Shown: piece after piece, positions 7,709-62,859 of the stretch
Numbering within the stretch: the first letter of the stretch is position 1
Layout: each line of letters opens with the position of its first letter
From: Litorivivens sp.
Lineage (GTDB): Bacteria > Pseudomonadota > Gammaproteobacteria > Pseudomonadales > Spongiibacteraceae
Direction of reading: 5' to 3'
Assembly (NCBI RefSeq): GCF_041624475.1
Contig: NZ_JBFJUX010000011.1
Location: 7,891 to 71,890 of the forward strand
Length of the DNA stretch: 64,000 nucleotides
The notes under the pieces: generated by a model
What the model was told of the DNA's origin: nothing
What the model saw: the letters and a program-made list of their open reading frames with translations, nothing else
Database searches by the model: none
Made by a program: the position numbers and the translations under genes

Positions 7709-7754
7709 GCAGAAACGGGTAACCAGAATAAGAACGCGAGGGAGCGGCTGATCT

Positions 7755-21148: not shown

Positions 21149-21153
21149 ACGCT

Positions 21154-22187: not shown

Positions 22188-22190
22188 GGT

Positions 22191-23123: not shown

Positions 23124-23130
23124 TGCCTCG

Positions 23131-25244: not shown

Positions 25245-25274
25245 CTCCTGTCATCCACGGTTCCGTTGTGGCCT

Positions 25275-27430: not shown

Positions 27431-27440
27431 TCTTGCCTGC

Positions 27441-32344: not shown

Positions 32345-33036
32345 TCATTGTCGCCTTGGGTATTCAGACAGTAGCCAATACCGCGGATGGTAGTGATGTA
32401 TTCCTCCTGACTGTAGTCGACCAGTTTTTTTCGCAGATGGCTTACATGCATGTCGAGGCTGCGATCAAAGGGCTCAAGCGGTCGCTGCAGGACACGCTCA
32501 CTGAGTGCCTCCTTGCTGAGCACTTCGTTGGGCTTTTCCAACAACGCACATAACAAATCAAATTCGCGAGCAGTGAGTTTAATGTCATCGTTCCTACAGC
32601 TCAGGCGTCGTCGTTTTGTATCCAGCGAAAACGGGCCGAACCTCTGTGGCGTCTGCTCTTCGCCGGGCCGGGCACTTCCGCGCCGCAGCACGGCGCGTAT
32701 TCGCGCTGACAGTTCACGTGGGTTACAGGGTTTTGGCAGGTAGTCGTCGGCGCCCAGTTCCAAACCGAGAATACGATCCATATCGTCGCCGCGAGCGGTA
32801 AGCATGATGATCGGCAGATTGGTTCCAGCCTGACGCAGCTGCTTGAGCACATCCAGGCCCTGCAGCCCCGGCAGCATAATATCGAGGATCAGAAGATCAT
32901 AGTGCTTGTTCTGCAGCTGCGCGGCTACGGCGTCGCCCCGGTGAACACAGTCACAGGTGTAGCCATCCAGCTCGAGGTATTCGCTCAGCAATTGGCACAG
33001 GGCTTCATCGTCATCTGCCAGCAGCAGCGTGGGCAT
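32341..33036 (-). CDS. cpxR: OmpR-family response regulator, CpxR-like
   Basis: IMLTARGDDMDRILGLELGADDYLPKPCNPRELSARIRAVLRR and PFDRSLDMHVSHLRKKL closely resemble CpxR. Confidence 0.75.
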   Translation of the reverse strand: MPTLLLADDDEALCQLLSEYLELDGYTCDCVHRGDAVAAQLQNKHYDLLILDIMLPGLQGLDVLKQLRQAGTNLPIIMLTARGDDMDRILGLELGADDYLPKPCNPRELSARIRAVLRRGSARPGEEQTPQRFGPFSLDTKRRRLSCRNDDIKLTAREFDLLCALLEKPNEVLSKEALSERVLQRPLEPFDRSLDMHVSHLRKKLVDYSQEEYITTIRGIGYCLNTQGDNE

Positions 33037-33098
33037 GGTGGATATCCGGTGTTGAGACGTTTGTATTGTGTTGCGGCTGGCGGCGTTGGGGAACCGCT

Positions 33099-33137
33099 TT
33101 TACAGAAAATTTACAGTAGCCCGACAGTATTTTACAG
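33099..33137. promoter_or_regulatory. Three phased TTTACAG repeats (GTAAA on the opposite strand): candidate CpxR boxes
   Basis: TTTACAG occurs at 33099-33105, 33110-33116 and 33131-33137. Start-to-start spacings are 11 and 21 bp. The repeats lie in the cpxR/cpxP-like divergent intergenic region. Confidence 0.55.
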
Positions 33138-33184
33138 CGCATGGCGCTAATCTGAGGCTGTTCTTAACGTGTGGAGTAACGACG

Positions 33185-33631
33185 ATGAAAGCATTGAAAT
33201 GGTTTGCAATTGTTCTGCTGGGTAGCACGACGCTGCTTGCTCTGGCCAAACCCTACCACCATGAGGGCCGCGGTGGGGACCATTTTCGGGAGCAGCTGCA
33301 GACCCTGAATCTGGACGGGGCCCAGCAGGCCTCAGTGGATGACATTTTAAATACAGCAAAAAAAGACAGAAAGGCGCTGCGAAAGTCTCAGCGGGATCTG
33401 TTCAAGCGCATGCACGCGCTGGATATGGCATCTGTGACGGAAGCGGAAATCAATGAGCTGAGTGAGGCGGTTGGCCGCAACGCCGCAGAAAAATTCCGAC
33501 ACCGCCTGCAAACCCGTGCGGCCATTGCCGCAGTGCTTACACCGGAGCAGCGGGAGCAATTACAGCAGGCAAAACAGGCGCGGAAAGCGGAGCTGCGCGA
33601 GCGCATGAAGCATCACCGGGACGCCAATTGA
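33185..33631 (+). CDS. cpxP: Periplasmic Spy/CpxP-family (LTXXQ) protein
   Basis: It has a signal peptide MKALKWFAIVLLGSTTLLALA, is helical and charged, and carries an LTPEQ motif. It is divergent from cpxRA, as in E. coli. An internal Met was chosen over the ORF start at 33068. Confidence 0.65.
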   Translation: MKALKWFAIVLLGSTTLLALAKPYHHEGRGGDHFREQLQTLNLDGAQQASVDDILNTAKKDRKALRKSQRDLFKRMHALDMASVTEAEINELSEAVGRNAAEKFRHRLQTRAAIAAVLTPEQREQLQQAKQARKAELRERMKHHRDAN

Positions 33632-36681: not shown

Positions 36682-37458
36682 TCAGGGCGGCTGGCGAACG
36701 GTGGATGGCGAGGGCAGCGCGAGACGAACCCGGTAAATGCGCGGCCAGTATTTGCCGGTCACCAGCCAGCTGTCGCTGTCTTTGTCGTAGGCAATGCCGT
36801 TGAGTACGTCGGTGTGTGGGGCTCGTATGGCCGGGGGGTAAAGCCCGGTCATGTCTAGAATCTTGAGCACTTCGCCGCTCGCCTCGTCGATGACCAGGAT
36901 GCAGTTGGTCTGCCATTGATTGGCCAGTACCAGGCCATTGTGCCACTCCAGTTCATTGAGGAACTTCATGGGCTTGTTTTGATAGTGAACTGCAACACGC
37001 CGGCGTTCGGAGAAGTCGGATGGATTGATGAAGCGCAGCTCGGCGCTGCCGTCGCTCATAATCAATTCGCGGCCATTGTGGGTCAGCCCCCAGCCCTCGC
37101 CGGGGTAGAGGTGGCGTTTCTGAAAGGCCAGGGTCAGCGGGTCAAACACCAGCGCAGTCCCTTGTTTCCAGGTCAAGACATAGAGCCTGTCGCCGAACAC
37201 GGTCATACCTTCGGCGAAATAGTTGCCAGGCAAGGCCAGCTGGCGGTGTCCACCGCGCAGATCGCCGTAGATCAGAAAGGATTTGCCGTAACCGCCGCTG
37301 CTTTCATAGAGCTGTTTGTTGTGCAGCACCAGCCCCTGAGTAAAGCCTCGGCTGTAGTGCGGATAGCTGTCGATCAGTTCAAAGTCTGCAGCAGTTGCCA
37401 GCATGCTGCTGAGCAGCAGACTCCATAGCAGAGTGGTTCGCTGTAAGAGAGTTCTCAG
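36682..37458 (-). CDS. Glutaminyl-peptide cyclotransferase (beta-propeller, plant/bacterial type), probably secreted
   Basis: FTQGLVLHNKQLYESSGGYGKSFL...GEGWGLTHNG...LNELEW is glutamine-cyclotransferase-like. The first ATG is at 37404, but the in-frame upstream sequence encodes a signal peptide from a CTG at 37458 preceded by GGAG (see finding). Confidence 0.8.
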   Translation of the reverse strand: MRTLLQRTTLLWSLLLSSMLATAADFELIDSYPHYSRGFTQGLVLHNKQLYESSGGYGKSFLIYGDLRGGHRQLALPGNYFAEGMTVFGDRLYVLTWKQGTALVFDPLTLAFQKRHLYPGEGWGLTHNGRELIMSDGSAELRFINPSDFSERRRVAVHYQNKPMKFLNELEWHNGLVLANQWQTNCILVIDEASGEVLKILDMTGLYPPAIRAPHTDVLNGIAYDKDSDSWLVTGKYWPRIYRVRLALPSPSTVRQPP

Positions 37459-37649
37459 AAAACTGTCTCCATTTGCGGTGTAAAGTGACAGTCCAGTCTA
37501 GCGCAGAGCCACTCCATCCTGAAGCTGGAGCGACGACTGGCAGAATGTCGAGCTGTTAACACAAAGGTTGAGACGTCCTTCCTTGTGAGGGGGGGGCGTA
37601 TGGGGTTTGATGAGCGGTAAAAGCGGTGGCACGTTTTAGGGGGTATTAA

Positions 37650-38003
37650 ATGCTGCACAGCTTGAACCAGGTCAGTTTTACCGACCGTGTATTGCAGTTG
37701 ATTCCCGGTGCAGATCGGGTGCAACTGAGACGTATGTTTGGCGGCGTCGGCTTGTTTGAGCACAATACGATGTTTGCCATTGCTGTGAATGAGCGGCTGT
37801 TTCTGAAGGCCGATGCCAAAACCCGTGGCGATTTTGAACGACGCGGCCTGGAGCGATTTCACTACGATCACAACGATCAATCTCTGACCCTGGACTTCTA
37901 TCTGGCGCCAGCCGAAGTCTTCCGGCATGACCGCGATATGGCGCTGTGGGTTAATCGGGCCCGGGCCGCCGCATTTCGCGGCAAAACTGCGGCCAACAGC
38001 TAG
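37650..38003 (+). CDS. TfoX/Sxy N-terminal-domain protein
   Basis: 117 aa. RRMFGGVGLFEHNTMFAIAVNERLFLKAD is the TfoX_N signature. There is no TfoX C-terminal domain. Confidence 0.8.
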   Translation: MLHSLNQVSFTDRVLQLIPGADRVQLRRMFGGVGLFEHNTMFAIAVNERLFLKADAKTRGDFERRGLERFHYDHNDQSLTLDFYLAPAEVFRHDRDMALWVNRARAAAFRGKTAANS

Positions 38004-38037: not shown

Positions 38038-41000
38038 TCAGGTTGTAAGTTCTTCGGCTTCCGGCTCGTCATTCACCTGCGCCTTGTCGCGACTGAACAG
38101 GCGCAGAATATCCTCCAGAATCAGGTAGCTTGCGGGCACCATCATCAGGTTAACAAATGATGCAATCAATACCCCGAAGGCCAGCGAAACCGCCAGTGGA
38201 ACAAACATGAAGATGGCGAGGTTGTGGTTGGTAATCAGGGGGATTAGACCGACAAAGGTGGTGAGGCTGGTCAGAATAATCGGCCGAAAACGCACGACGC
38301 CGGCTTCCAGCGCGGCCTTTTCCACGGGCATTCCCTCGCTGCGGCGCTGATTGATGTAGTCGACCAGTACCAGCCCCGAGTTCACCACGACCCCGGCCAT
38401 GGCCACGATGCCGAGCAGTGACCAGATAATCAAGTCGAGTCCCAGCAGGTAATGTCCGACCAGCGAACCGATCATCCCAAAAGGTATAACGCCCATGATC
38501 ACAAAGGGCTGGAAGTAGGATTTCAAAGGAATAGCCAGCAGACTGTAGATTACGAACATAGCGATCACCATATTGCGCAGCAGTCCGGCCAGGGCGCCGG
38601 CCCGCTCTTCCGCTTCGCCGGCCAGCGAATACTCGATCGAAGGATAACGCTGGGTAATCTGCGGCATGATCTCGCTGATGGCGTGATTGATGATAGCTTC
38701 GGGCGTGGTGACGTCGCGATCGATATTGGCTTGAACCGATACGACCTGTTTGCCATCAACCCGCTGAATGGTCGAGTACCCCCGCCCGGTGGATACCCGA
38801 GCGACGCTGTTGAAGGGCACCTCGGCTCCGGTTTCTGTGCGGATCATCATATCTTCCACATCACCCAGCGAGCGCCGTTCGCTTTCCGGAAAACGGACCA
38901 TCACCCGCACATCGTCCTGACCGCGCTGAATGCGCTGTACCTCTAGGCCGTAGAAGGCTTCCCGCACCTGATTGGCCAGCGCTGATGTAGTGAGCCCAAG
39001 CGTGCGCGCTTCCGGTTTCAGGTCGAGCTGTATTTCCAGTTTGCCCGGGCGAAAGGTGTCGGTGATATCCAGCACACCGGGTAGTTCCGCCAGTGCTTCC
39101 TTGAGTAGAGCTGCACTCTGCTTCAGGTCCTCCGTCGATTCGCCGCGCAATTGCAGATCCAGCGCTTTGCCCACAGAAAAGGCCGATGCGGTAAAGGTCA
39201 GCTCCAGTGCTCCCGGTATGGCACCCGTTAGTTCTCGCCAGCGCTCGACGATGGCGTTGGGGTCCAGACCGTAGTCGTCGGGGTTGAGTGTCTCCAGTGC
39301 CACCTCTGCGAAGTGGCCGCCCACAGCACTGCCATCGCCGATAGATCCTTTTATTAGCGGGGCGCCAATGGAAGACAGAATATGCTTCACCCGACTGGGT
39401 TCACCCTCGGCCAGCTTGGCATCCAATTCCCGCTGCAGCTGGTTGGCGGCCTTCTCTATCTGCTGGACTCGGGTCAGCATGGTGGTCTGGTCGGTGCCTG
39501 CCGGCATGGTCAGCGTGGCATAAAGGCGCTCGCCAACCACATCGGGTATGAATTGCAGGGACAGACGTCCACTGGCGACCAGCCCGAAGGCCGCGATCAG
39601 CAGGGCGAGGCCCGAGGCCAGAGCCAGGTAGCGCCAGCGCAGGGTGATGACCAATAGAGGCTGGTAGACATTCTCCGCCAGTGACTGCAATTGCCGGGGC
39701 AGCCAGGATTCGCGGTTCTGGCGGCGGCCGCTGGTCAGAATACGGTGGGAGAGGTGCACGGGCAGAATCAGCTGGGATTCAATAATGCTGAAAAACAGTG
39801 CGGCAATAACCACAATGCCCAGCACCGCAAACCACTCGCCAATTGCGACCGGAATGACGACAAAGGGCATAAACGCAACCATGCTGGTCAGGACACCAAA
39901 AATGACCGGGATGGATACTTCCTGGGTGCCGGCAATAGCCGCCTCTTTGGGGCCAAGCCCTTTGAGTTGATGGGCGTAGATGCGTTCTGCCACAACTACC
40001 GCATCGTCCACCAGAATACCTAACACCAGAATAAAGGCGAGTATCGACATGGTAGAGATAGCGATATCGGCGACCGGGAAAATAATCAGGCTGCCTGCCA
40101 GCGCCACAGGAATGCCCACTGCCACCCAGAACGCGAGGTTGGGTTTGAGAAACAGTGACAGCAGCAGGACCACCAGCAGTAGCCCCGACCCGGCATTGGT
40201 GCGCAGTAGGTTCAGTCGGTCGACCAGATCCTGGGATTCGTCTTTCCACAGGGTCATGCTAATACCTTCGGGCAGATCCGCTTCGGCCTGCTCCAGATAG
40301 GTTTTGACCCGCTCGGCAAGATCGATAACGTCTTCCTTGCCAATGCGTTTGACCTGAATCATGACCGCCGGGTTGCCGTCAAAACGCACGCGCAGATCCT
40401 GGTCCATGAATCCATCCACGACATTGGCGATATCGCCTAGCGTAATGACACTGCCGTCTTCGCGGGTCAGGACGATGATCTCTTCAAAATCTCGCCGGCT
40501 ATAGGCCTGGGCCTTGGTGCGCAGCAGTACTTCACCGCTTTCGGTTTTGATTGCGCCGCCGGGCAGGTCCAGCGAGCTGTTTCTGATGGCGGCGGCGACC
40601 TGTTCCAGCGTCAGCCCATAGCGACGGAGGGTGTGCTCGGACACCTCAATCGACATTTCATAGGGGCGAACGTAGGTGACCTGTGCTTGGGAGACACCCG
40701 GCAGCTCCACGATATCGTCGCGAATTTTGTAGGCGAGTTCTTTCAGGCTGCGCTCGTCGGCTTTGCCGGCAAGCATGATGTGCAGCACGTGGGTGAGGAT
40801 GTCTTCCTCTTTGACCTGAGGTTCTTCCGCGTCCGTCGGAAAGGAGTCAATGCCATCCACCCGGCTTTTAATATCGTCGACCACCTTGCCCTTGTCGACG
40901 CCGATTTCCATTTCAACCCGGGTGACGCAGGCGCCTTCCTGGGCCGTTGTCAGAATCTTTTTGATATTGGGCGTGCCTTCGATGGCTTCTTCAACCCGTA

Positions 41001-41196
41001 CGCAAACCGATTCTTCCACTTCGGCCGGGGATGCGCCGAGGTAGGGAACGGTGACGCGAACCACATCGGTAGCGAGGTTGGGAAACTCTTCCCGGTAGGT
41101 GGAGGTCAGTGTCAGGCCGCCGACAATCAGCAGCACCCACATCATCAGGTTGGCGGCAACCGGGTTGTAGACAAACCAGCGAATCAGGGAATGCAC
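38038..41196 (-). CDS. RND efflux transporter permease (AcrB/HAE-type)
   Basis: 1052 aa. The 12-TM RND architecture and N-terminus IRWFVYNPVAANLMMWVLLIVGG are typical. Confidence 0.9.
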   Translation of the reverse strand: MHSLIRWFVYNPVAANLMMWVLLIVGGLTLTSTYREEFPNLATDVVRVTVPYLGASPAEVEESVCVRVEEAIEGTPNIKKILTTAQEGACVTRVEMEIGVDKGKVVDDIKSRVDGIDSFPTDAEEPQVKEEDILTHVLHIMLAGKADERSLKELAYKIRDDIVELPGVSQAQVTYVRPYEMSIEVSEHTLRRYGLTLEQVAAAIRNSSLDLPGGAIKTESGEVLLRTKAQAYSRRDFEEIIVLTREDGSVITLGDIANVVDGFMDQDLRVRFDGNPAVMIQVKRIGKEDVIDLAERVKTYLEQAEADLPEGISMTLWKDESQDLVDRLNLLRTNAGSGLLLVVLLLSLFLKPNLAFWVAVGIPVALAGSLIIFPVADIAISTMSILAFILVLGILVDDAVVVAERIYAHQLKGLGPKEAAIAGTQEVSIPVIFGVLTSMVAFMPFVVIPVAIGEWFAVLGIVVIAALFFSIIESQLILPVHLSHRILTSGRRQNRESWLPRQLQSLAENVYQPLLVITLRWRYLALASGLALLIAAFGLVASGRLSLQFIPDVVGERLYATLTMPAGTDQTTMLTRVQQIEKAANQLQRELDAKLAEGEPSRVKHILSSIGAPLIKGSIGDGSAVGGHFAEVALETLNPDDYGLDPNAIVERWRELTGAIPGALELTFTASAFSVGKALDLQLRGESTEDLKQSAALLKEALAELPGVLDITDTFRPGKLEIQLDLKPEARTLGLTTSALANQVREAFYGLEVQRIQRGQDDVRVMVRFPESERRSLGDVEDMMIRTETGAEVPFNSVARVSTGRGYSTIQRVDGKQVVSVQANIDRDVTTPEAIINHAISEIMPQITQRYPSIEYSLAGEAEERAGALAGLLRNMVIAMFVIYSLLAIPLKSYFQPFVIMGVIPFGMIGSLVGHYLLGLDLIIWSLLGIVAMAGVVVNSGLVLVDYINQRRSEGMPVEKAALEAGVVRFRPIILTSLTTFVGLIPLITNHNLAIFMFVPLAVSLAFGVLIASFVNLMMVPASYLILEDILRLFSRDKAQVNDEPEAEELTT

Positions 41197-41199
41197 GCG

Positions 41200-42378
41200 C
41201 TACGCTCCCTTGGCGGGGCTGGTGTTTACGCGCATGCCTTCAACCGCAACTGTCAGCGGAGAGATGCAGACTGCTTCGCCGGCTTTGAGACCGGACTGCA
41301 CCAGTATTTCCTCGCCCTGCACGCGCAGTATTTTCACATGACGAAAGTGCAGCCGGTTGTCTTCATCCACCACCAGTACCTGCTGGTTGTCGCGCAGTGC
41401 ACTGCGGGGCAGGGTAATTACGTCCGGGTAGACTTTGCCCTGAATGGCGGCTTTGACAAACATGCCCACCAGCAGTGGGGCGTGACCTGGCTCAACAATA
41501 TTCTCAACGGTGACCACGCCGTAGACCAGTCGCGTTGCCGCATCGATTTCGCCTTCGGTGCGCTGCAGTTCGCCGCTCCAGAAGTATTCGTTTTCGCCGA
41601 TATTGCCGGCGATAGTGACCGGCAGAGTGTTATCCGGCGCCAGCACGCCCTGGGTGCCGGGCGGGATGTCCAGATAAACGAATTGCTCAATGCCGATGGG
41701 CAGGTGCACTTCGTAAAAATCGGTGGCATAGAGGGTGGCTATATTTTCGCCCTGGGTCAGATACTGGCCAAAATCCACCGATTCCTTGCGCACCCGGCCG
41801 GCGAAGGGGGCCTTGATGATGGTCCGCTCCAGATTGGTTTTTGCCTGCTGCTGCTGAATCCGGGCTTCGTTAAGAGACGCTTCCGCAAGGCGGAAACTGC
41901 GCCGGGCCTGATCGACCTGTGTTTCACTGGCGAGATTGCGGCGAATCAGCGACTCGATGCGTTTTAATTCGCGTCGCGCGTGGTCAAATTCCACCTCGGC
42001 GCGCACCAGCCGGGTTTTGCTCGAGGCCAGCGCCGTGCGGTAGTCGGTATCGTCAATTTCCAGCAGTTTTTCGCCCGCCGCAAACAACCCGCCATTGACG
42101 AGCTGCGGCGAGATCCAGACAACCTTGCCCGACACTTCCGGTTTAAGCACCGTTTCACTGCGGGGCCGCACGGTTCCCTGAGAATAAACTTCGACCTCGG
42201 TATCCTGAGGTTGCGCGATAACGACTTCTACCGTCGGATAGTGAGGTTCAAGCGCTTTTTTCTGGATCTGCGGCGGGTTATTAACCTGATATTGGTAGGC
42301 GGCAATCCCCAGGCTAAGGGCGACAAGAGGCAGCAGGATCTTGAAAAACAGCGAGCGGTGCTTTCTGGGTTCAGACAT
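41200..42378 (-). CDS. RND periplasmic adaptor (membrane fusion protein)
   Basis: It is HlyD-like with a coiled-coil hairpin and lies immediately upstream of the RND pump. The start chosen is MSEPRKHRSLFFKILLPL. No outer-membrane factor gene is adjacent. Confidence 0.85.
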   Translation of the reverse strand: MSEPRKHRSLFFKILLPLVALSLGIAAYQYQVNNPPQIQKKALEPHYPTVEVVIAQPQDTEVEVYSQGTVRPRSETVLKPEVSGKVVWISPQLVNGGLFAAGEKLLEIDDTDYRTALASSKTRLVRAEVEFDHARRELKRIESLIRRNLASETQVDQARRSFRLAEASLNEARIQQQQAKTNLERTIIKAPFAGRVRKESVDFGQYLTQGENIATLYATDFYEVHLPIGIEQFVYLDIPPGTQGVLAPDNTLPVTIAGNIGENEYFWSGELQRTEGEIDAATRLVYGVVTVENIVEPGHAPLLVGMFVKAAIQGKVYPDVITLPRSALRDNQQVLVVDEDNRLHFRHVKILRVQGEEILVQSGLKAGEAVCISPLTVAVEGMRVNTSPAKGA

Positions 42379-42492
42379 TGTCGAAAATTCTTTTCTGGAA
42401 GGGCGGCGAGCCTGACGGCGGGCAGCTGCAACTATACGCAAGCCTGGCACGCCACGCCATTACGCGGCTTTAATCGCTCGTATTCATGCGGT

Positions 42493-51211: not shown

Positions 51212-52225
51212 CTAACTATCCAGCGACTCCGGGTAAGCAATGATACGCGGCGCGTCGCGGTCGCTCGCATCCATCAGAATCACCATCTCTTGACCGCCGA
51301 ATTCTTCGGGCATCTCTATATTCCAGCGAAAAAATGACACGCGGATGCGGTTTTCACCAGGCTGAATAACCGTGTTCGCTCGGTACTGATAGTTTCCCAG
51401 ACCTTTGAAACGGTCGCTGTTCTTCTCCACTTCCTGTCCATTCACAAAGTGGCGAACATTCAGAATCTTGTTACTGCGAATCTTCAGACCGTCGCCACCG
51501 ATGCGCAGCTGCAGGTTGGCAAGTTCCGTCAGCACCTGTGCGCGGCTGGTCAGCAGGGTGAAGTCGCGGTCCAGCTCCAGCGGTTCATTGCTGCTTGCCA
51601 CTTTATTGTCGGGCTCTGACTTTGCTTTGGTCTCGGCTTTGGCGACCGGTTTTTCGGCGGCGGAGGGCTGGTTGTTGTTTGCCTGAGCGCGATTGCGGGC
51701 TTCGGCCTCAGCGCGCCGAGCCGCCTCTGCTTGCTGGCGCTCGCGATAGGCTGCAATTTCCCGCTTCATTTCAGGGATGCGTTTTTCGACCCGCTCAAGT
51801 TCACGGCGAACGCGGATCAGCTCGCTTTCCACGCCGTCCTGTTTGGCCTCCAGCTGACGCAACTGACTATTGGCTGAACGAAATTTGCGCTCTGCCAGAT
51901 GCATCTTGAATTCGGCGTTGCGCAGCCGGCTTTTGTTGGTTGGTGTGGGGTCGGTTTCGTACTGCTCGCTGGCCTCTTCAAAACCGGCGACAGCTTCGTC
52001 GTAGGCGGCTTTTTCGGGCCCGTCCGACGGCTCCGTATTGGCCATCTGCTGGCTCAGCGAAACCGATTGCTCGCGCAGGGACTGAATTTCTTCCTGCAGC
52101 TCTGCCTGACGTGCCTGCAGGCGGGATAAATCCTGGCTTGAGGGTTGCGCCAACGCACTCTGGCTCACGATGCTGGCTGCCAACAGGCAAACTTTGCCCA
52201 AGCGAATAATATCTGAGGGTTTCAT
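51212..52225 (-). CDS. Secreted coiled-coil protein of unknown function
   Basis: It has a signal peptide (...LLAASIVSQSALAQ), ~170 aa of heptad-like charged sequence, a low-complexity linker and a ~130-aa C-terminal domain. Confidence 0.6.
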   Translation of the reverse strand: MKPSDIIRLGKVCLLAASIVSQSALAQPSSQDLSRLQARQAELQEEIQSLREQSVSLSQQMANTEPSDGPEKAAYDEAVAGFEEASEQYETDPTPTNKSRLRNAEFKMHLAERKFRSANSQLRQLEAKQDGVESELIRVRRELERVEKRIPEMKREIAAYRERQQAEAARRAEAEARNRAQANNNQPSAAEKPVAKAETKAKSEPDNKVASSNEPLELDRDFTLLTSRAQVLTELANLQLRIGGDGLKIRSNKILNVRHFVNGQEVEKNSDRFKGLGNYQYRANTVIQPGENRIRVSFFRWNIEMPEEFGGQEMVILMDASDRDAPRIIAYPESLDS

Positions 52226-54555: not shown

Positions 54556-54599
54556 GCACTTGCTTTATAATTGCCGCTGAATTCTCAGTGGTTAATGAG

Positions 54600-54622
54600 A
54601 AACGCCCTGCGGGGCGTTTTTT
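54600..54622 (+). terminator. Rho-independent terminator after fadD
   Basis: AAACGCCC-tgcg-GGGCGTTT forms an 8-bp stem, followed by a T run. Confidence 0.8.
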
Positions 54623-54635
54623 CGTTTTGAGGGCT

Positions 54636-57600
54636 ATGCAGACTAAACAGCAGATTGACGCCATCTGGCTCGCCGACGAACCCCGCTTGCGGCGTTTGCA
54701 GGGCGATATTAGAAAGCGATCGCGCCAGGGCAAGCCAACGGATCGTTTGCAGGCCAAATTCAGCGATATGTTGGCTCAGTCGCAAGCCAAGGTGGCTGCG
54801 CGCCGGCAGACACTGCCACAGATCAGCTATCCTGACCTGCCCGTCGCCCGTGAAGTGGAGCGCATCCGCGCGGCCTTGTTGGACAATCAGGTTATTGTGG
54901 TGGCCGGCGAAACCGGTTCCGGCAAAACCACCCAGTTGCCCAAACTCTGTCTTGAGGCCGGGCGCGGTATTCACGGTCTGATCGGCCATACCCAGCCGCG
55001 ACGGCTGGCGGCCCGCACCGTCGCCCAGCGCATTGCCAGCGAACTGCAGACGGAGTTGGGCGCGGCGGTGGGCTATCAGGTGCGCTTTCACGATCAGGTG
55101 TCAGATGGCACCTATATCAAGTTGATGACCGATGGCATTCTGCTCGCTGAAATTCAGCACGATCCTTACCTCTATCGCTACGATACGCTGATAATCGATG
55201 AGGCCCACGAACGCAGCCTCAATATTGACTTCCTGCTCGGCTACCTGAAGCTGTTGCTGCCCAAACGGCCCGATCTGAAAATCATCATCACCTCAGCGAC
55301 CATCGACGTGCAGAGATTTTCCGAGCACTTTGATAACGCGCCGGTCATAGAGGTCTCGGGGCGGACCTATCCGGTGGATATCCGCTATCGACCGCTGGAA
55401 GAGTTGAGTCCCGAGCTGGACCAGGCCGAGGCCATCGAGCAGGCGCTGCAGGACCTGGACGCCGAGGGCGGTCGTCGGCAAGGCGATGTGCTGGTTTTTC
55501 TGAGTGGCGAGCGCGAGATTCGCGCAGCGGCGAAACAGTTGCGGCGCTCCAGCCTGATGGGACTGGAAGTCCTGCCCTTGTATGCACGCCTGAGCGCGCG
55601 TGAGCAACAGCGCATCTTTGACGAGGGCGGGAGACGGGGATGGCGCGTTGTGCTGGCGACCAACGTCGCGGAAACCTCGTTGACCGTGCCGGGTATTCGC
55701 TTTGTTATTGACACGGGCACGGCGCGCATCAGCCGCTACAGTTATCGCAGCAAGGTGCAGCGCCTGCCGATCGAGCCGGTGTCACAGGCCAGTGCCAACC
55801 AGCGGGCCGGGCGCTGTGGGCGCGTCGCGCCAGGCGTTTGTGTGCGCTTGTATTCCCAGGAGGATTTTGAGGCCCGCCCGGCCTTTACCGAGCCGGAAGT
55901 GCAGCGCACCAATCTCGCATCAGTGATTCTTCAGATGCTCAATATGCGATTGGGCGATATCGAAAACTTTCCTTTTGTAGACGCGCCGGATCGCCGCTTT
56001 ATCAATGACGGCTACAAGCTGCTCGAAGAGCTGGCGGCGGTGGACAAGGGTGAACTGACGCCGCTGGGCAAAACTCTGGTGCGCCTGCCGGTTGATCCGC
56101 GTATGGCGCGCATCCTGCAGGCGGCCAGCCAGCTCGGTTGTCTGCAGGAAGCCTTGATCGTTGTCAGCGCGCTCAGTATTCAGGATCCGCGCGAACGGCC
56201 CGCCGACAAGCAGCAGGCCGCCGACGAAAAGCACCGTCGCTTTATCGATAAAGACTCGGATTTTTCGGCCTATGTGAATCTCTGGAACTATCTGGAGGAG
56301 CAGCGTCAGGAACTGTCCAACAACCAGTTCCGAAAAATGTGTCAACGCGAGTTTATCGCGCCGAGTCGCGCTCAGGAGTGGCGTGAGCTGCACTGGCAGC
56401 TAAAGCTAGCCTGCCGCGATAACGGTTGGAAACTCAACGCGGAACCAGCCTCCTTTGAAGCCCTGCACCGGGCGGTGCTGGCCGGCTTTTTGAGCCACGT
56501 GGCCAAGAAGGACGAGCAGCACTGGTATCGCGGCACCCGCAACCGCAAGCTGCGCATTTTTCCGGGCTCCGGGCTGTTCAAGAAAAACCCGGCCTGGATT
56601 GTGGCGGCAGAACTGGCGGAAACCTCCCAGCTTTTTGCCCGCTGCGTGGCCAGAATTGAACCGGAGTGGATACCCGGCATCAACGACGCAGTGCTGAAAC
56701 ACCAGTATTTTGAACCCCACTGGCAGGCAAAGGCGGGGCGTGTCAGCGCCTTCCGGCAGACCAGCCTGTATGGGCTGGTCATTCAGGATCGGCAGCGAGT
56801 CAATTACGGGCCCATCGATCCGGTGTTATCGCGGGAGATACTAATTCGCAGTGCATTGGTAGAAAGGCAGTACCGGGGCAAGGCGGCATTTTTCGCTCAC
56901 AACAAAGCAGCAATTGATAAGGTGCTGGCGCTTGAAAGCAAGCTGCGGCGGCGAGACCTGTTGATCAGCGATGATGCCATGTTTGCCTTTTACGACCGCC
57001 GGCTGCCGCCGGAAATTGTCAGTGCCCGACATCTGGAGAGCTGGCTGGGCAAGGCGGAAGAAAGCGAGCGCAAGGCACTGGAGATGAGCGATGACGATGT
57101 GCTGGCCGTTAGCCAGAGTCGCGAGGCCATCAATCAGTTTCCGGACACCTGGCGTTGGGGCGAGCTGCGCCTGCCCCTGCGCTATCGCTTTGAGCCCGGT
57201 CATCAGGGCGACGGTGTGACTCTGGTGGTCCCGTTGGTGCTGCTCAATCGAGTGCCCGAGCACCTTCCCGAGTGGCTGGTTCCGGGTTTGCTGGAAGATA
57301 AATGCGTCGCGCTGCTAAAAGCTCTGCCCAAACAGTGGCGCAAAAAGCTGATGCCGATACCCGTCACGGTCGGAAAAGCGCTGTCACTGATGGAGGCCGG
57401 TGATCAGCCCCTCAGTCGCGCGCTGGCCGAGGCGCTGCGACGGGTGGTCGGCGAGACGATACCGCCGGAGCTGTGGCGTGGAGATCTGCTCGACGCGTTC
57501 TATCTGATGAACTTCGAAATTGTGGATGAGCGCGGCAAAGTGCTCGCGCAGGGTCGGGACCTACAGGCACTGAAAGCGCGTTACAGCGAGCAGTCGGCGG

Positions 57601-58517
57601 CCGAGTTACAGGCTCGGGGCGAGCAAAACACCGAGCAGCAGATATTTACTGAATGGACACTTGATCGGCTGCCGCAAAATAAACGTATCAAGCAGGGCGG
57701 TGCCGAGGTTACGGCCTATCCTGCTCTGATAGACCGCGGCGACGCGGTGGAGCTGACCCTGCTGGATACGGCAGACGAGGCCGACCGCCAGAGTCGCAGG
57801 GCGGTAGTCAGGCTGCTGACGCTGCAGTTGACCCGCCAGTTGAAACCCTGGCGGGAAAGTCTGTTGCGCGGCAATACTGAGCAGTTACAGTTGGCGGCCC
57901 TTGGCGTGCGGCGCAAGGATTGGGTTGAAGACGTGATTGAGGCGGCCGTCTACCAGACATTTGTCGACGGTCGCGAATTGCCCCGTGACAGCGAAGATTT
58001 CGCTGCGCTGATTGCCTTACCGGGGCTCGAAGAGCAGTTGGAGCGGACGGCAGAGCTGACAAAACGCATACTGGAAAGCGCAGCCGCGGTACGCAAACGA
58101 CTGAAAAAGCTGACCCAGCTGACCTGGATAGAAACGGTCGGCGACGTCAGAGAGCAACTGGACGCTCTGTTGTTCAAGCGGTTTTTGCGAGAGCTGCCGA
58201 CAAACAGGCTGGAGCAGTACCCCCGGTATCTTGATGCTGTGTCACAGAGGCTGGACAAACTGGAGGGGCACTATCAGCGTGAGCGGCAGATACTGATCGG
58301 CTTGCGTAAACTGACTGAGCCGCTGTGGCAGACGACGAGTCCGGAGAAACTGGCGGCTGACAGTTCAAATGCGGTGCTAGAAGAGTATCGCTGGGTATTG
58401 GAGGAGTATCGGGTCTCGCTGTATGCTCAGGGGCTTGGGACGCGGGCTCCGGTGTCGGAAAAGCGACTCAAGGCGCTGTGGCGAGATTATGAACAAAGCC
58501 GTGCCGCCCGGGTTTAA
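54636..58517 (+). CDS. hrpA: ATP-dependent RNA helicase HrpA (DEAH-box)
   Basis: It has GETGSGKTTQLP and IIDEAHERS motifs. Its ~1290-aa length and C-terminal extension are typical of HrpA. An internal Met was chosen as start. Confidence 0.9.
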   Translation: MQTKQQIDAIWLADEPRLRRLQGDIRKRSRQGKPTDRLQAKFSDMLAQSQAKVAARRQTLPQISYPDLPVAREVERIRAALLDNQVIVVAGETGSGKTTQLPKLCLEAGRGIHGLIGHTQPRRLAARTVAQRIASELQTELGAAVGYQVRFHDQVSDGTYIKLMTDGILLAEIQHDPYLYRYDTLIIDEAHERSLNIDFLLGYLKLLLPKRPDLKIIITSATIDVQRFSEHFDNAPVIEVSGRTYPVDIRYRPLEELSPELDQAEAIEQALQDLDAEGGRRQGDVLVFLSGEREIRAAAKQLRRSSLMGLEVLPLYARLSAREQQRIFDEGGRRGWRVVLATNVAETSLTVPGIRFVIDTGTARISRYSYRSKVQRLPIEPVSQASANQRAGRCGRVAPGVCVRLYSQEDFEARPAFTEPEVQRTNLASVILQMLNMRLGDIENFPFVDAPDRRFINDGYKLLEELAAVDKGELTPLGKTLVRLPVDPRMARILQAASQLGCLQEALIVVSALSIQDPRERPADKQQAADEKHRRFIDKDSDFSAYVNLWNYLEEQRQELSNNQFRKMCQREFIAPSRAQEWRELHWQLKLACRDNGWKLNAEPASFEALHRAVLAGFLSHVAKKDEQHWYRGTRNRKLRIFPGSGLFKKNPAWIVAAELAETSQLFARCVARIEPEWIPGINDAVLKHQYFEPHWQAKAGRVSAFRQTSLYGLVIQDRQRVNYGPIDPVLSREILIRSALVERQYRGKAAFFAHNKAAIDKVLALESKLRRRDLLISDDAMFAFYDRRLPPEIVSARHLESWLGKAEESERKALEMSDDDVLAVSQSREAINQFPDTWRWGELRLPLRYRFEPGHQGDGVTLVVPLVLLNRVPEHLPEWLVPGLLEDKCVALLKALPKQWRKKLMPIPVTVGKALSLMEAGDQPLSRALAEALRRVVGETIPPELWRGDLLDAFYLMNFEIVDERGKVLAQGRDLQALKARYSEQSAAELQARGEQNTEQQIFTEWTLDRLPQNKRIKQGGAEVTAYPALIDRGDAVELTLLDTADEADRQSRRAVVRLLTLQLTRQLKPWRESLLRGNTEQLQLAALGVRRKDWVEDVIEAAVYQTFVDGRELPRDSEDFAALIALPGLEEQLERTAELTKRILESAAAVRKRLKKLTQLTWIETVGDVREQLDALLFKRFLRELPTNRLEQYPRYLDAVSQRLDKLEGHYQRERQILIGLRKLTEPLWQTTSPEKLAADSSNAVLEEYRWVLEEYRVSLYAQGLGTRAPVSEKRLKALWRDYEQSRAARV

Positions 58518-58767
58518 GGCGAGTGCGCTGATGCGCGACTAAGCTAATTGGGTATGCATAGAAACAGTAAGGAAGTGATGTTTCGGCAGAAAGTGGCTGT
58601 GCACGAATTTATGCCTTGACCTGCCTGTGCAGAACGCGGGTAAATCCGTCAGGGTAGCGTAATAGAATAATGAAACGTATGAGCGCGAATATCGATTTTT
58701 CTGTGGGCTGTAACAAATCGGTATTTGCTTCATCTAAAAGGCAACATCAACTCAGGAGAGTACTCCC

Positions 58768-59187
58768 ATGGCGAAAATGAGCAAAAAACCTTTGGCTGCA
58801 GCATTGAGCGCAGCGGTATTGGCTGGCGGTGCAGTATCCACAGTCAGTGCGGAAACCAACCCCTTCGCGGCAACGCCGCTGACCGCGGGCTACGATTTGG
58901 CATCCTTTGGTAAACACGCCGAGGGCAAGTGTGGCGAAGGTAAATGTGGTGCTGAATCCAAAGCCAGGGGTGAGGGCAAATGTGGCGAAGGCAAGTGCGG
59001 TGAAGGCAAGTGCGGCGCTGAGTCCAAAGCCAAGGCTGAGGGCAAGTGCGGTGAAGGCAAATGCGGAGAAGGTAAGTGTGGTGCCAGCTCCAAAGCCAAG
59101 GAAGGGAAGTGCGGCGAAGGCAAATGCGGCGCCAGTTCCAAAGCCAAAGAAGGTAAATGTGGCGAAGGCAAGTGCGGCAGCCACTGA
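58768..59187 (+). CDS. hvfA: Sec-signal RiPP precursor with 12 EGKCG repeats (HvfA/oxazolin-type metallophore precursor)
   Basis: 139 aa. The signal peptide is MAKMSKKPLAAALSAAVLAGGAVSTVSA|ET. It carries 12 copies of (E)GKCG grouped 2-3-3-2-2 and separated by (A/S)(E/S)SKA(K/R)-type linkers. The RBS is GGAGAG. DUF692 and DUF2063 genes follow immediately. Confidence 0.85.
   Translation: MAKMSKKPLAAALSAAVLAGGAVSTVSAETNPFAATPLTAGYDLASFGKHAEGKCGEGKCGAESKARGEGKCGEGKCGEGKCGAESKAKAEGKCGEGKCGEGKCGASSKAKEGKCGEGKCGASSKAKEGKCGEGKCGSH
58921..59178 (+). repeat. Coding tandem repeat with 15-nt period (GAR GGY AAR TGY GGY) inside the precursor gene
   Basis: Read directly. The units use mixed synonymous codons. 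The repeat creates long spurious ORFs in the other frames and on the other strand. Confidence 0.9.
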
Positions 59188-59204
59188 GCACGCTGTACTG
59201 AGCT

Positions 59205-60032
59205 ATGTCTGAAGTACTGGCAGGACTGGGATTGCGTCGCGGTCTGAGTGACGCCTTGCAGTCCGTGGAGCCGGGGCGTATCGACTTTATGGAGGTCGCC
59301 CCGGAAAACTGGATGCACCTTGGAGGGCGACTGCGCCGTGAGTTCCGGCGCTTTGCCGAACGCTACCCTATTTATCTGCACGGCTTGTCCCTGAATGTCG
59401 GCGGTTTTGCTCCGCTCGACAGGGACCTGCTGCTGTCGATCCGGCAATTCATGTCGGAGTTTGACTGTCCCCTTTACACTGAGCATCTAACCTATTGTGC
59501 AGATGACGGTCATCTTTACGATCTGCTGCCGATTCCCTTTACCGAAGAAGCCGTGCAGCACGTAGCTGCCCGGGTTCGCCAGGTACAGGATATTCTCGGT
59601 GAGCAGATCGCGCTGGAAAACGCCTCCTACTATGCAGCGCCGGGCCAGGTTTTGTCTGAGAGCGAGTTTATTCGCGCCGTTCTTGAAGAGGCCGACTGCA
59701 AATTGCTGCTCGACGTCAACAATATCTATGTAAATAGCATCAATCACCGCTATGACCCGCTGCGGTTTCTTGATGAGCTGCCGCTGGAGCGCGCCTGCTA
59801 TATGCATATTGCCGGGCACTATGAAGAGGCGGAAGATATTCGTGTCGATACCCACGGCGCCGATGTTATAGAGCCGGTGTGGGCACTGCTGAATGAAGCC
59901 TATGCCCGGGTGGGTCCGCTACCCACCTTGGTTGAGCGGGATTTCAATTTCCCACCCATTGAAGAGCTCTTAGCAGAGGTCGATCAGGTTCGATCTGCCC
60001 AGCTCAGGTACGCTGCGGCGGTGACAGACTGA
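59205..60032 (+). CDS. hvfB: Multinuclear non-heme iron oxidase (MNIO, DUF692/MbnB-like)
   Basis: 275 aa. GLGLRRGL...IDFMEVAPENWM...LHGLSLNVGG...YTEHLTYC...LENASYY...DVNNIYVNSINH...HIAGH...VDTHG...ERDFNFP is the DUF692 TIM-barrel pattern. It starts 17 nt after the precursor stop. Confidence 0.9.
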   Translation: MSEVLAGLGLRRGLSDALQSVEPGRIDFMEVAPENWMHLGGRLRREFRRFAERYPIYLHGLSLNVGGFAPLDRDLLLSIRQFMSEFDCPLYTEHLTYCADDGHLYDLLPIPFTEEAVQHVAARVRQVQDILGEQIALENASYYAAPGQVLSESEFIRAVLEEADCKLLLDVNNIYVNSINHRYDPLRFLDELPLERACYMHIAGHYEEAEDIRVDTHGADVIEPVWALLNEAYARVGPLPTLVERDFNFPPIEELLAEVDQVRSAQLRYAAAVTD

Positions 60033-60775
60033 TGCATTTCCAGCAGTTACAGCGCTCACTTACGTCACACCTGCGCGATCCTGAACGGCGCGCGGCACCG
60101 CCCGATATCGAGTCGCGCCGGGTGGGCATCTACCGCGATCTCATTTACAACAATATCGAAAGTTTTCTCAGCGGCGGTTTTCCGGTGCTGCGCAGCATCT
60201 ATAGCGATGAACGCTGGCACGCACTGGTACGAGACTTTGTGCGCGACCATGTCAGCCATTCGCCGTATTTTCTGGAAATCAGTGAGGAATTCCTCGCCTA
60301 TTTGCAGCATGAGCGCGGCGAGCGGGCCAGCGATCCGCCCTTCCTGCAGGAGTTGGCGCACTACGAATGGGTTGAGCTGGCATTGGATGTTGCGCCCGAT
60401 GAGGAGCTGGAGGCAGACCCTGAGGGTGACCTGATGTCGGGGCGCCCACTGGTTTCACCCCAGGCCTGGCCCTTGGTTTACCATTTTCCGGTCCATCTGA
60501 TCGGTGAGTCTTTCCAGCCCGACGAGCCGCCCCCGCAGCCGACCTGGCTGGTGGTGTACCGCACGCCGTCACTGGAGATTGAATTCATGGAAATCAACGC
60601 GGTGACCTTTCGCCTGCTGGCGCTGCTGGACGATACCGTTAGCGGACAGGCGGCGCTTGAAGCGCTCGCAGCGGAGTTGCGGCACGACGATCCGGCACAG
60701 CTGATGCAGTTTGGGGGCGAGCTACTTGAACAGTTGCGTGAGGCCTCCATTCTGCTCGGAACGGAGCTCTCCTGA
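60032..60775 (+). CDS. hvfC: DUF2063-family MNIO partner protein (HvfC/MbnC-functional analogue)
   Basis: 247 aa. LQRSLTSHLRDPE...GIYRDLIYNNIESFLSGGFPVLRS...WHALVRDFVRDHVSHSPYFLEISEEFLAYL is DUF2063-like. Its ATG overlaps the hvfB stop (TGATG). Confidence 0.85.
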   Translation: MHFQQLQRSLTSHLRDPERRAAPPDIESRRVGIYRDLIYNNIESFLSGGFPVLRSIYSDERWHALVRDFVRDHVSHSPYFLEISEEFLAYLQHERGERASDPPFLQELAHYEWVELALDVAPDEELEADPEGDLMSGRPLVSPQAWPLVYHFPVHLIGESFQPDEPPPQPTWLVVYRTPSLEIEFMEINAVTFRLLALLDDTVSGQAALEALAAELRHDDPAQLMQFGGELLEQLREASILLGTELS

Positions 60776-60855
60776 TGACCTTGCTGCGGCTGGATTTACG
60801 GGTGAATCCGCTATATCGTTGCAGCTCAATAAAACTGATAAATTCCGGACTCCGA

Positions 60856-61578
60856 ATGCGTCTTTCTGCTCTGTTCAGGCTTTGCTCCCTGTGGCTTTTG
60901 GTTGTGCTTGCTGGCTGCGCCAGTCAGCCGGAAAACCCCGACCCCTGGGAAGGTTTTAATCGTAAGGTGTTTGCCTTCAACGAGGTGGCGGACAAGTATG
61001 TCGCCAAACCCGTTGCCGAGGGTTATCAGGCGGTGCTGCCCAATTTTCTGGAGCAGGGCATCGACAATATGCTCGGTAACCTGCGCGAACCGCTGAATAT
61101 CGTGGCCGACCTCGGTCAGCTGAAATTCAAGGCGGCTGTCGTTGACGGCGGTCGCTTTGTAATTAACTCCACCGTGGGTATCGCCGGCTTCTTTGAAGTT
61201 GCGTCACATATCGGCCTGGAAAAACGTACTGAAGACTTTGGTCAAACCTTGGGCTATTGGGGAGTTGGGCCCGGCCCCTATCTGGTGTTGCCGATTTTGG
61301 GGCCGTCTACGGTTCGGGACGCGGGTTCTTCGGTGATCGATGCACAGGTTGACGCCATCAGTCAGGTCGATCACGTGCGTACCCGCAATCAGATGCGCTT
61401 TCTCGATCTGGTTAATACCCGCGCCAACCTGTTGAAGACCGAAAGTCTGCTGTCGGGAGACCGCTACACGTTTATGCGCGACGCCTATTTGCAGCGGCGT
61501 GAGTATCTGATCAGTGACGGTGCTGTTGTGGAAGACAGCTTCGGCGAAGAGGAATTCGAGGAGTGGGACGAGTTTTAG
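60856..61578 (+). CDS. mlaA: MlaA/VacJ outer-membrane lipoprotein
   Basis: It has a lipobox (VLAGCAS). DPWEGFNRKVFAFNEVADKYVAKPVAEGY is typical of MlaA. An internal Met was chosen as start. Confidence 0.9.
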   Translation: MRLSALFRLCSLWLLVVLAGCASQPENPDPWEGFNRKVFAFNEVADKYVAKPVAEGYQAVLPNFLEQGIDNMLGNLREPLNIVADLGQLKFKAAVVDGGRFVINSTVGIAGFFEVASHIGLEKRTEDFGQTLGYWGVGPGPYLVLPILGPSTVRDAGSSVIDAQVDAISQVDHVRTRNQMRFLDLVNTRANLLKTESLLSGDRYTFMRDAYLQRREYLISDGAVVEDSFGEEEFEEWDEF

Positions 61579-61653
61579 CGGTAATTCCGCGCTCGTCTGT
61601 CTATACTTTTTCTGAAATGATGCTCGCAGCGAGAGGGATATGCCTGTCCCTCC

Positions 61654-62859
61654 ATGCCGCAAAGGCCTGACATGACCCAGCAAGAACGACGAAAACGCCT
61701 GTTGCTGATTCAGCGCGCTGATGATCAGCGGGAAGAGCTTGTGTCTGCCCTGAGCCGTCTGGGGTATACGGTAAGCGTCAGTGACAACGGCGAAGCGGCT
61801 TTCGAGCGTTTTCATGAGCAGACGCCGGATGCTGTGCTGCTGGATCTCTATGTCGGCGAGGATGGTCGTCGGATACTGGAAGTGCTGACCGCTGACAAGC
61901 GAGAAGTGCCGGTCATCGTTATCTCACGCCGTCGTGTGATGGCCGATGTGGTGGAAGCCCTGCGCAAGGGCGCCTGTGACTACCTGATGATTTCGGGCAC
62001 CATCGGTGACGAAAAGCTGCTTGGTCATGCGATGGAGCGCGCTTTCCAGCAAGGCGCATTGCGCCGCGAAAACCGCGAATACCGGAGCAAGCTGGAAGCG
62101 GCCAACCGGGAATTGCTGGAAAGCCTCAGCCACTTGAAGAAAGACCAGCAGGCCGGCCGTCATATCCAGCTCAAAATGCTGCCCGAAACCCCAAAGACTA
62201 TTGGCAAGTTCCGTTTTCATCAGCATATTCTGCCGTCGCTGTATCTCAGCGGTGATTTTATCGATTATTTCATTGTCGGTGACCGCTACGCGGTGTTCTT
62301 TGTCGCCGATGTGTCGGGGCACGGCGCCAGCTCGGCCTTTGTGACGGTCATGCTGAAGAACCTGTTTGCCCGCAAACGCAGTGATTTCCATCATCGCCAC
62401 AGCAGCGCGATCCTGTCTCCTGCCCATATGCTGGACAAGGCCAATCGGGAATTGATCGGCATGGAGATCGATAAGCACGTCACCATGTGTGTGGGCGTGA
62501 TCGATCTGCACAGCGATGAGCTGTGTTACAGCATTGCCGGCCATCTGCCGGCGCCCATACTCAGTGTGGACGGTACCGCCCGCTATCTGGACGGTCACGA
62601 TTTGCCCGTCGGCCTGTTTCCGGACGTAAATTATTCGGAACATCGGATGTTACTGCCGCCCAAGGCTGTCCTCACCTTGTTCTCCGATGGTATATTGGAG
62701 GTGTTGAACCCCAAGGGGGTGATCGCCAAAGAGCAGTATCTGCTTGAGGCGCTCGAGGATGGCCCGCAGACGGCCGATGATGTTATTCAAACCTTCAGGC
62801 TGGATAGCATCGAGGAAGCGCCCGACGATATCGCTGTGTTAGTGGTGTCGCGAGTTTAG
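61654..62859 (+). CDS. Response-regulator receiver fused to a PP2C/SpoIIE phosphatase (RssB-like)
   Basis: The REC domain has a candidate acceptor Asp in AVLLDLYV. A coiled linker follows, then a PP2C-like domain FFVADVSGHGASSAF...FSDGILEV. An alternative start is at 61672. Confidence 0.8.
   Translation: MPQRPDMTQQERRKRLLLIQRADDQREELVSALSRLGYTVSVSDNGEAAFERFHEQTPDAVLLDLYVGEDGRRILEVLTADKREVPVIVISRRRVMADVVEALRKGACDYLMISGTIGDEKLLGHAMERAFQQGALRRENREYRSKLEAANRELLESLSHLKKDQQAGRHIQLKMLPETPKTIGKFRFHQHILPSLYLSGDFIDYFIVGDRYAVFFVADVSGHGASSAFVTVMLKNLFARKRSDFHHRHSSAILSPAHMLDKANRELIGMEIDKHVTMCVGVIDLHSDELCYSIAGHLPAPILSVDGTARYLDGHDLPVGLFPDVNYSEHRMLLPPKAVLTLFSDGILEVLNPKGVIAKEQYLLEALEDGPQTADDVIQTFRLDSIEEAPDDIAVLVVSRV

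Follow-up and report, generated by a model that had tools for sequence, protein, structure and literature searches.

Introduction

Gene clusters of the captophorin class number more than 20,000 in RefSeq (PMC12668002; bioRxiv 10.64898/2026.06.05.730506). A survey from 2025 described ∼2,000 ‘Buf_EGKCG/oxazolin’ precursors, which range from 31 to 506 residues and contain up to 58 cysteines, and the surveyed clusters mix precursor, MNIO, DUF2063 and DoxX genes in various ways, with DoxX being optional (PMC12452194). The present study concerns a three-gene cluster, here termed hvfABC, in a 64,000-nucleotide stretch of DNA from Litorivivens sp. (contig NZ_JBFJUX010000011.1, positions 7,891 to 71,890 of the forward strand), which is referred to throughout as the window. 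Judged by its genes, this locus is an hvfABC/mmrABC-type captophorin cluster and an ordinary member of a well-catalogued family. By analogy with the characterised homologues, HvfB and HvfC would oxidise the cysteine residues of HvfA to thiooxazoles ahead of export by Sec, and the outcome would be a polypeptide that binds Cu(I) in the periplasm, a reading to which we assign a probability of roughly 0.88.

One of the characterised systems is that of oxazolin, the product of Haemophilus influenzae HvfA (Manley et al., PNAS 2024), a 95-residue protein with six modified cysteines whose operon also contains a DoxX gene and for which cleavage of the signal peptide was shown experimentally (PMC11252979). 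Oxazolin was reassigned from oxazolone/thioamide to 5-thiooxazole by the original authors, using selective 13C/15N HNCO nuclear magnetic resonance, iodoacetamide reactivity and the lack of oxazolone breakdown products (bioRxiv 10.64898/2026.06.05.730506). A second group independently arrived at 5-thiooxazoles in oxazolin, fontiphorin and gonophorin, the latter two being Cu-binding products of the EGKCG precursors of Fontimonas fonABC and Neisseria ngoABC (PMC12668002). The Cu(I)-binding oxazolone-thioamide chemistry assumed for HvfA in the initial annotation of the window has thus been superseded. The active species of the enzyme is a mixed-valent di-iron cofactor that is formed only when HvfC is present (bioRxiv 10.64898/2026.07.17.739211).

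In Microbulbifer, the mmrABC genes (bulbicupramide; Tang et al., ACS Chem Biol 2025) form a three-gene cluster for which neither DoxX nor a protease was reported. Every EGKCG cysteine of MmrA loses four hydrogens, the product carries thiooxazoles, and bulbicupramide is a Cu(I) binder that does not take up Fe(III), Ni, Zn or Mn (PMC12538549). The initial annotation held the family to be essentially unstudied outside Haemophilus; with mmrABC (PMC12538549), fonABC and ngoABC (PMC12668002) characterised and two surveys published (PMC12452194, PMC12668002), that view can no longer be maintained.

The precursor gene and its EGKCG array

The features first read from the DNA (a 139-residue open reading frame (ORF), 12 EGKCG units grouped 2-3-3-2-2, a 17-nt gap and a TGATG overlap) were all found in place, and the identification as a three-gene cluster with an MNIO and a DUF2063 partner was upheld by PF05114, by PF09836 together with PF22106, and by three NCBIfam models (HvfA-family, HvfB and HvfC), each match exceeding its curated cut-off (Table 1). 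Such a combination of features is well outside what chance would produce. As read from the ORF list and the sequence, the HvfA N-terminus is MAKMSKKPLAAALSAAVLAGGAVSTVSA, followed by the 23-residue spacer ETNPFAATPLTAGYDLASFGKHA and then by exactly 12 EGKCG units. All cysteines of the protein lie within these units, and 12 of 12 are in a G-K-C-G context. On inspection, the predicted signal peptide has a positively charged n-region (MAKMSKK) and a hydrophobic core of 16 residues and ends in V-S-A (−3 to −1), a layout that is shared by the relatives. The succession of signal-like N-terminus, leader and EGKCG array is that of the family, as observed across 74 precursors. The gene is preceded by AGGAG 9 nt 5′ of the ATG.

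The NCBIfam model NF050137 (HvfA-family KCGExKCG_twice) matched the precursor in four stretches (118 bits; cut-off 19.5). A Pfam scan of the precursor gave no match, and hence no DUF2282 domain. The computed masses of the unmodified protein are 13,413.1 Da for the precursor and 10,829.0 Da for the mature form of 111 residues. The segment ETNPFAATPLTAGYDLASFGKHA is probably recognised by the RiPP recognition element (RRE; RiPP, ribosomally synthesised and post-translationally modified peptide) of HvfC, by analogy with Microbulbifer, where the conserved MmrA leader was modelled onto the MmrC RRE (PMC12538549).

Table 1. Features of the hvfABC locus, in window coordinates.
Feature	Position	Strand	Basis or remark
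hrpA-hvfA intergenic region, presumed promoter region; AGGAG ribosome-binding site at 58754-58758	58518..58767	+	sequence reading
hvfA/mmrA-type precursor gene	58768..59187	+	139 aa; NCBIfam NF050137 match
Predicted Sec-type signal peptide, 28 aa, predicted cut after VSA	58768..58851	+	inspection
Leader-like conserved segment ETNPFAATPLTAGYDLASFGKHA, 23 aa	58852..58920	+	motif comparison with relatives
Core, 12 EGKCG units (2-3-3-2-2) with SKAK-type linkers	58921..59178	+	12 Cys = predicted modification sites
hvfB/mmrB, MNIO (DUF692) predicted thiooxazole-forming maturase, 275 aa	59205..60032	+	PF05114, NF003818
hvfC/mmrC, DUF2063 + RRE-type partner, 247 aa	60032..60775	+	PF09836, PF22106, NF050145

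When the twelve 15-mers that encode the units are compared, the third codon positions vary at five of five sites and the first and second positions at none of ten, so that all changes are synonymous. This synonymous-only variation indicates that the + frame is the one under selection. Rather than a recent expansion of DNA, the EGKCG array is an old one that purifying selection maintains in the + frame.

The array is variable in length within the species. Across conspecific assemblies the hvfBC genes are 99.75–99.94% identical and the HvfA protein differs only by an in-frame unit change. In one of them, GCA_041566015.1 (hvfBC 99.87% identical), the precursor gene (L082:2722-3156) carries one additional in-frame 15-nt EGKCG unit, and the encoded HvfA has 144 residues and 13 cysteines in a 2-4-3-2-2 grouping. 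Repeat number can therefore shift by single 15-nt units inside one species. Three of six short-read contigs (L084, L085 and L087) start within the repeat array, and assemblies tend to break there.

An identical 139-residue + strand gene is called at the same place in the conspecific assembly GCA_041635775.1 and in a conspecific Logan assembly, and the suspicion that such a precursor had been missed or placed on the wrong strand was accordingly dropped. An exact-sequence look-up of the 139- and 136-residue forms of HvfA in a protein collection reported both as absent. That annotators had overlooked the gene was considered and rejected, as the same 139-residue gene is called on conspecific contigs; the absence is instead a gap in the look-up. 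Small, highly repetitive proteins may be dropped from an exact-sequence index.

HvfB and HvfC

The product of 59205-60032, taken for a DUF692-type enzyme in the initial annotation, indeed matched the DUF692/MNIO models. PF05114 (MbnB_TglH_ChrH) scored 339.4 bits against a cut-off of 25 and the NCBIfam HvfB model NF003818 scored 424.5 against 360. The scores of the BufB model NF050167 (263.6; cut-off 310) and of the MbnB model TIGR04159 (45.7; cut-off 325) were below their thresholds. Among solved structures, the closest match to the enzyme is PDB 3BWW, a HvfB-like protein of Histophilus somni (E 2.5e-84), which has been used by the Rosenzweig group as a structural proxy for HvfB (bioRxiv 10.64898/2026.07.17.739211).

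In order to locate the catalytic residues, HvfB was aligned with MbnB of known structure, and the list of iron ligands was taken from PMC9060507. All nine ligands of sites 1–3 are present: H59, H94, E138, D170, N173, H201, D215, H217 and E244 align, in that order, with MbnB H54, H90, E133, D163, N166, H192, D208, H210 and E239. Moreover, in none of the nine ligand columns does more than one of 81 homologues depart from the conserved residue.

The partner protein matched both domains of the DUF2063/NGO1945 family above their cut-offs, PF09836 (N-terminal) with 90 bits and PF22106 (C-terminal) with 103.5 bits, and the NCBIfam HvfC model NF050145 with 321.5 against a cut-off of 142. The only solved homologue found is PDB 3DEE (NGO1945/NgoC; E 5e-9). 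HvfB and HvfC are identical to the RefSeq proteins WP_372779469.1 and WP_372779471.1 of Litorivivens sp., and the corresponding UniRef names are ‘HvfB family MNIO-type RiPP peptide maturase’ and ‘HvfC family RiPP maturation protein’. The hvfB ATG (59205) lies 17 nt past the hvfA stop, and the hvfB TGA overlaps the hvfC ATG in a TGATG at 60030-60034.

Comparison with related loci

A scan with HvfB, using one genome per species, returned at least 594 loci, of which 80 were fetched for comparison. Among the matches listed, the closest relatives are 72–74% identical and belong to genomes of the Spongiibacteraceae and Halieaceae. As in the window, ∼32 of the 80 fetched loci have hvfABC flanked by hrpA and mlaA-rssB, and loci with this hrpA-hvfABC-mlaA-rssB order are found in Halieaceae, Spongiibacteraceae, Porticoccaceae, Cellvibrionaceae and Microbulbifer. 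No DoxX gene was seen in the 27 relatives in which mlaA comes directly after hvfC, nor does one follow hvfC in the other five loci with the hrpA…mlaA frame. A DoxX gene stands right after hvfC in 17–18 loci of other lineages.

In 76 of 81 loci, hvfB has a KCG-rich ORF in front of it. The full-length precursors of 73 relatives have between 4 and 17 cysteines, with a median of 8, and tri-Cys cassettes are common; a leader motif of the form PF-x(6-10)-G[Y/F] was present in 64 of 74 full-length precursors. Twelve cysteines are therefore not exceptional, since 11 of the 73 precursors have 12 or more and the published maximum is 58 (PMC12452194). The number is towards the high end of what is usual, and both the three-gene layout and the absence of DoxX are normal for the marine lineage.

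With curated models, four characterised members, two genome-wide surveys, and HvfB and HvfC already in RefSeq, the locus offers little that is new as a discovery. It does provide one more data point for a DoxX-less three-gene form that is inherited at a fixed chromosomal site in many marine gammaproteobacterial genomes.

Proposed chemistry and its weighing

The chemistry, the order of modification before export, the export itself and the binding of copper are all proposed here by analogy with the characterised homologues. HvfA would be synthesised in the cytoplasm as a 139-residue precursor, and the RRE domain of HvfC would bind its conserved NPF...GY leader. The HvfB-HvfC pair, with a mixed-valent di-iron centre and O2, would then carry out a four-electron oxidation of each EGKCG cysteine to a 5-thiooxazole, with a loss of 4 Da and an absorbance maximum expected near 302–305 nm. 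For 12 modified cysteines the computed mass change is −48.4 Da on 10,829.0 Da. The modified polypeptide would next be exported by Sec and its 28-residue signal peptide removed, leaving a periplasmic protein of 111 residues and ∼10.8 kDa, rich in Gly, Lys and Glu, with up to 12 thiooxazole-thiolate ligands. If Cu(I) is bound at ∼1 Cu per heterocycle pair, as in oxazolin, the total would be ∼6.

Several observations weigh against this proposal. The HvfA equivalog model NF050188 scored 79.1 bits on the precursor, below its cut-off of 95, and the two N-terminal disulfide cysteines of H. influenzae HvfA are missing from the window protein; by these models the precursor is a member of the HvfA family, not an HvfA equivalog. 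When all six frames of the 64-kb window were searched with a local hidden Markov model (HMM) built from 17 hvf-linked DoxX proteins, no DoxX was found, nor was a copper-responsive regulator seen among the window ORFs scanned, in agreement with the initial annotation, which had noted the lack of both nearby. The absence of DoxX does not exclude membership of the class, because the surveys describe that gene as optional. A promoter scan around the operon recognised no sigma-70 consensus promoter. Finally, proteomics of Microbulbifer did not detect MmrA-C, whether copper was added or not, and the protection of Escherichia coli against copper was slight (PMC12538549), which means that neither expression nor a copper-detoxifying role can be assumed for the window cluster.

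Alternative explanations

The last point leads to the alternative that survives best, namely that the modified peptide is made but has a role other than copper detoxification, such as chalkophore-like acquisition or a function in envelope or oxidative stress under a sigmaE-type or other extracytoplasmic function (ECF) sigma factor. The Microbulbifer proteome and protection data point in this direction (PMC12538549), function is called unknown in the literature (PMC11252979, PMC12668002), no copper regulator was seen in the scanned ORFs, and the locus adjoins the envelope gene mlaA and the stress regulator rssB. In addition, 20 of 70 related loci (among them L003, L004, L009-L011, L013, L016, L017, L020, L022, L024 and L040) carry an AACTT-N16-GTC(A/T/G)TA element 90–220 nt 5′ of hvfA, where 0.0096 would be expected per 300 nt. 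The element, which we take to resemble sigmaE/AlgU-type ECF promoters, could mean that the clusters of these relatives are under envelope-stress control, and a stress-type motif of this kind could help to explain when apparently silent clusters switch on.

However, the AACTT-N16-GTCATA motif is absent upstream of the window hvfA (58468-58767) and is a candidate in relatives only. Bufferins, which have the same chemistry, protect against copper (PMC12452194), and Cu(I) binding is common to fontiphorin, gonophorin, oxazolin and bulbicupramide (PMC11252979, PMC12538549, PMC12668002). On this evidence a role other than detoxification is possible but, on the whole, unlikely. A more specific version, in which the DoxX-less hvfABC clusters at the hrpA/mlaA-rssB site (∼32 of 80 loci, mostly from marine gammaproteobacteria) form a distinct functional subtype under sigmaE/ECF-type rather than copper control, is more doubtful still. 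Were it correct, the job of the peptide would be protection against envelope or oxidative stress, or copper supply to periplasmic enzymes, instead of copper detoxification, and such an envelope-stress subtype would explain why MmrA-C escaped detection in the Microbulbifer proteome with and without copper.

A cluster that is silent or decaying, with HvfA either not made or exported unmodified as a plain Cys-rich protein, would fit the lack of a recognisable promoter and the undetected MmrA-C of Microbulbifer (PMC12538549). This is very unlikely in view of the state of the genes: none of the three ORFs is broken and the catalytic residues are invariant, the variation between units is synonymous only, the position of the cluster is kept across several bacterial families, and conspecific hvfBC genes are 99.75–99.94% identical with HvfA differing by no more than an in-frame unit. 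Together, the intact ORFs, synonymous variation, kept position and conspecific identity are signs of purifying selection.

The same enzymology might instead yield oxazolone/thioamide pairs as in methanobactin, the structure at first assigned to H. influenzae HvfA (PMC11252979) and still reflected in the NCBIfam family name. The reassignment of oxazolin by two groups (bioRxiv 10.64898/2026.06.05.730506; PMC12668002), the thiooxazoles assigned to Microbulbifer MmrA (PMC12538549) and the MbnB model score of 45.7 against a cut-off of 325 make this product highly improbable. Lastly, although long antisense ORFs (145, 115 and 198 residues) do exist over the repeat array, the idea that one of them is the real gene and the repetitive ORF an artefact can be set aside with near certainty, as the curated family model is matched by the + frame only, variation is confined to third codon positions of that frame, a ribosome-binding site and a predicted signal peptide go with the + ORF, gene callers choose the + strand, and a collection of 15 billion proteins contained none of the antisense products.

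Genomic neighbourhood and remainder of the window

The 5′ neighbour of hvfABC is a gene for an HrpA-type helicase. On the 3′ side are mlaA, a gene for an RssB-like response-regulator phosphatase and one for a STAS protein, with a fadE-like gene on the other strand; the hrpA-hvfABC-mlaA-rssB-like block spans positions 54588-62859. The hvfC stop shares a second TGATG (60773-60777) with an ATG of the mlaA ORF that lies upstream of position 60856. Translational coupling of hvfC and mlaA was considered and rejected, as the RefSeq MlaA protein (WP_372779473.1, 240 residues), to which the MlaA of the window is identical, starts at 60856 and has a lipobox (LAGC). The longer mlaA ORF of 267 residues is probably an over-extension; this long form is used in several metagenome gene calls. 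Horizontal transfer of the cluster was likewise rejected, its GC content being like that of the surroundings (0.579 for the cluster vs 0.567 for the window) and the synteny old.

Around the operon, a scan for + strand terminators found none, the sole terminator-like match being on the − strand (58768-58753), and an Rfam scan gave no family match. Neither an ECF sigma/anti-sigma pair nor an exporter or protease was seen among the window ORFs scanned, and the 64-kb window contains no second MNIO and no second KCG-rich or Cys-repeat precursor ORF.

At 30980-33631, a gene for a CpxP/Spy-like LTXXQ protein is transcribed divergently from two genes that share a strand and encode a response regulator of the OmpR type and a histidine kinase. 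The arrangement of this two-component system is Cpx-like, with all matches under equivalog cut-offs; it is located 25 kb from hvfA and no link between the two is claimed. A multidrug-type resistance-nodulation-division (RND) pump is encoded at 38038-42450. Counts of Pfam families, made over whole regions, point to two further systems. One, at ∼3600-11000 on the + strand together with ORFs near 2150-3110, is a type I restriction-modification system (HsdM N6_Mtase, HsdS Methylase_S and an HsdR T1RH-like C-terminal domain), accompanied by a RhuM-family protein and a RadC-like protein. The other, at ∼19300-28400 on the − strand, is a Tad/Flp-type pilus cluster with RcpC/CpaB, secretin, a T2SSE ATPase, two T2SSF and a pilus N-terminal region domain. 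Three ORFs had no Pfam match: 51212-52225 (− strand, 337 residues), 37455-37928 (− strand, 157 residues) and 328-1776 (+ strand, 482 residues). An NCBIfam scan of the first two was also without a match.

Comparison with known systems

The methanobactin system MbnABC shares with the window locus the MNIO fold and the iron ligands, and its cysteine oxidation (−4 Da) gives a copper-binding product. The window enzyme fell below the MbnB model cut-off, however, and its partner is of the DUF2063/RRE type, with no MbnC present. Methanobactin, moreover, is made with a leader peptide and a dedicated exporter and carries oxazolone/thioamide groups, whereas the window precursor has a predicted Sec signal, EGKCG repeats and predicted thiooxazoles.

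The bufferins (BufABC; PMC11626156, PMC12452194) have an MNIO of the same sequence cluster, a DUF2063-type partner and Sec-type precursors, as is predicted for HvfA too, and they carry thiooxazoles and bind copper in the periplasm. Their precursors have DUF2282 or are of the Buf_6/12Cys type, whereas the precursor in the window is without DUF2282, its enzyme scored below the BufB cut-off, and the locus has no ECF sigma/anti-sigma pair and no DoxX.

The fonABC and ngoABC clusters have the same three components as the window locus, an EGKCG-repeat precursor, an MNIO and a DUF2063-type partner, but differ from it in repeat number (fontiphorin, which aggregates with copper, has seven thiooxazoles), lineage and genomic context. 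The window locus resembles the H. influenzae system in that its enzyme and partner exceed the HvfB and HvfC model cut-offs and in that its precursor has AEGKCGEGKCG motifs and is predicted to be of the Sec type; the H. influenzae system differs in having a fourth, DoxX-type gene, hvfX, and six repeat cysteines plus an N-terminal disulfide pair, where the window protein has 12 repeat cysteines and no others.

A close parallel is mmrABC of Microbulbifer. MmrA has five to eight cysteines in di-Cys cassettes, in contrast to the 12 cysteines and two tri-Cys cassettes of the window precursor, and the host genera differ. The two nevertheless have in common the A-B-C gene order, a signal-like N-terminus, a conserved NPF..GY leader, EGKCG cassettes and a marine gammaproteobacterial host. 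Indeed, in Microbulbifer agarilyticus (L080) the cluster occupies the same hrpA-ABC-mlaA-rssB site, and its HvfB and HvfC are 62% and 54% identical, respectively, to those of the window.

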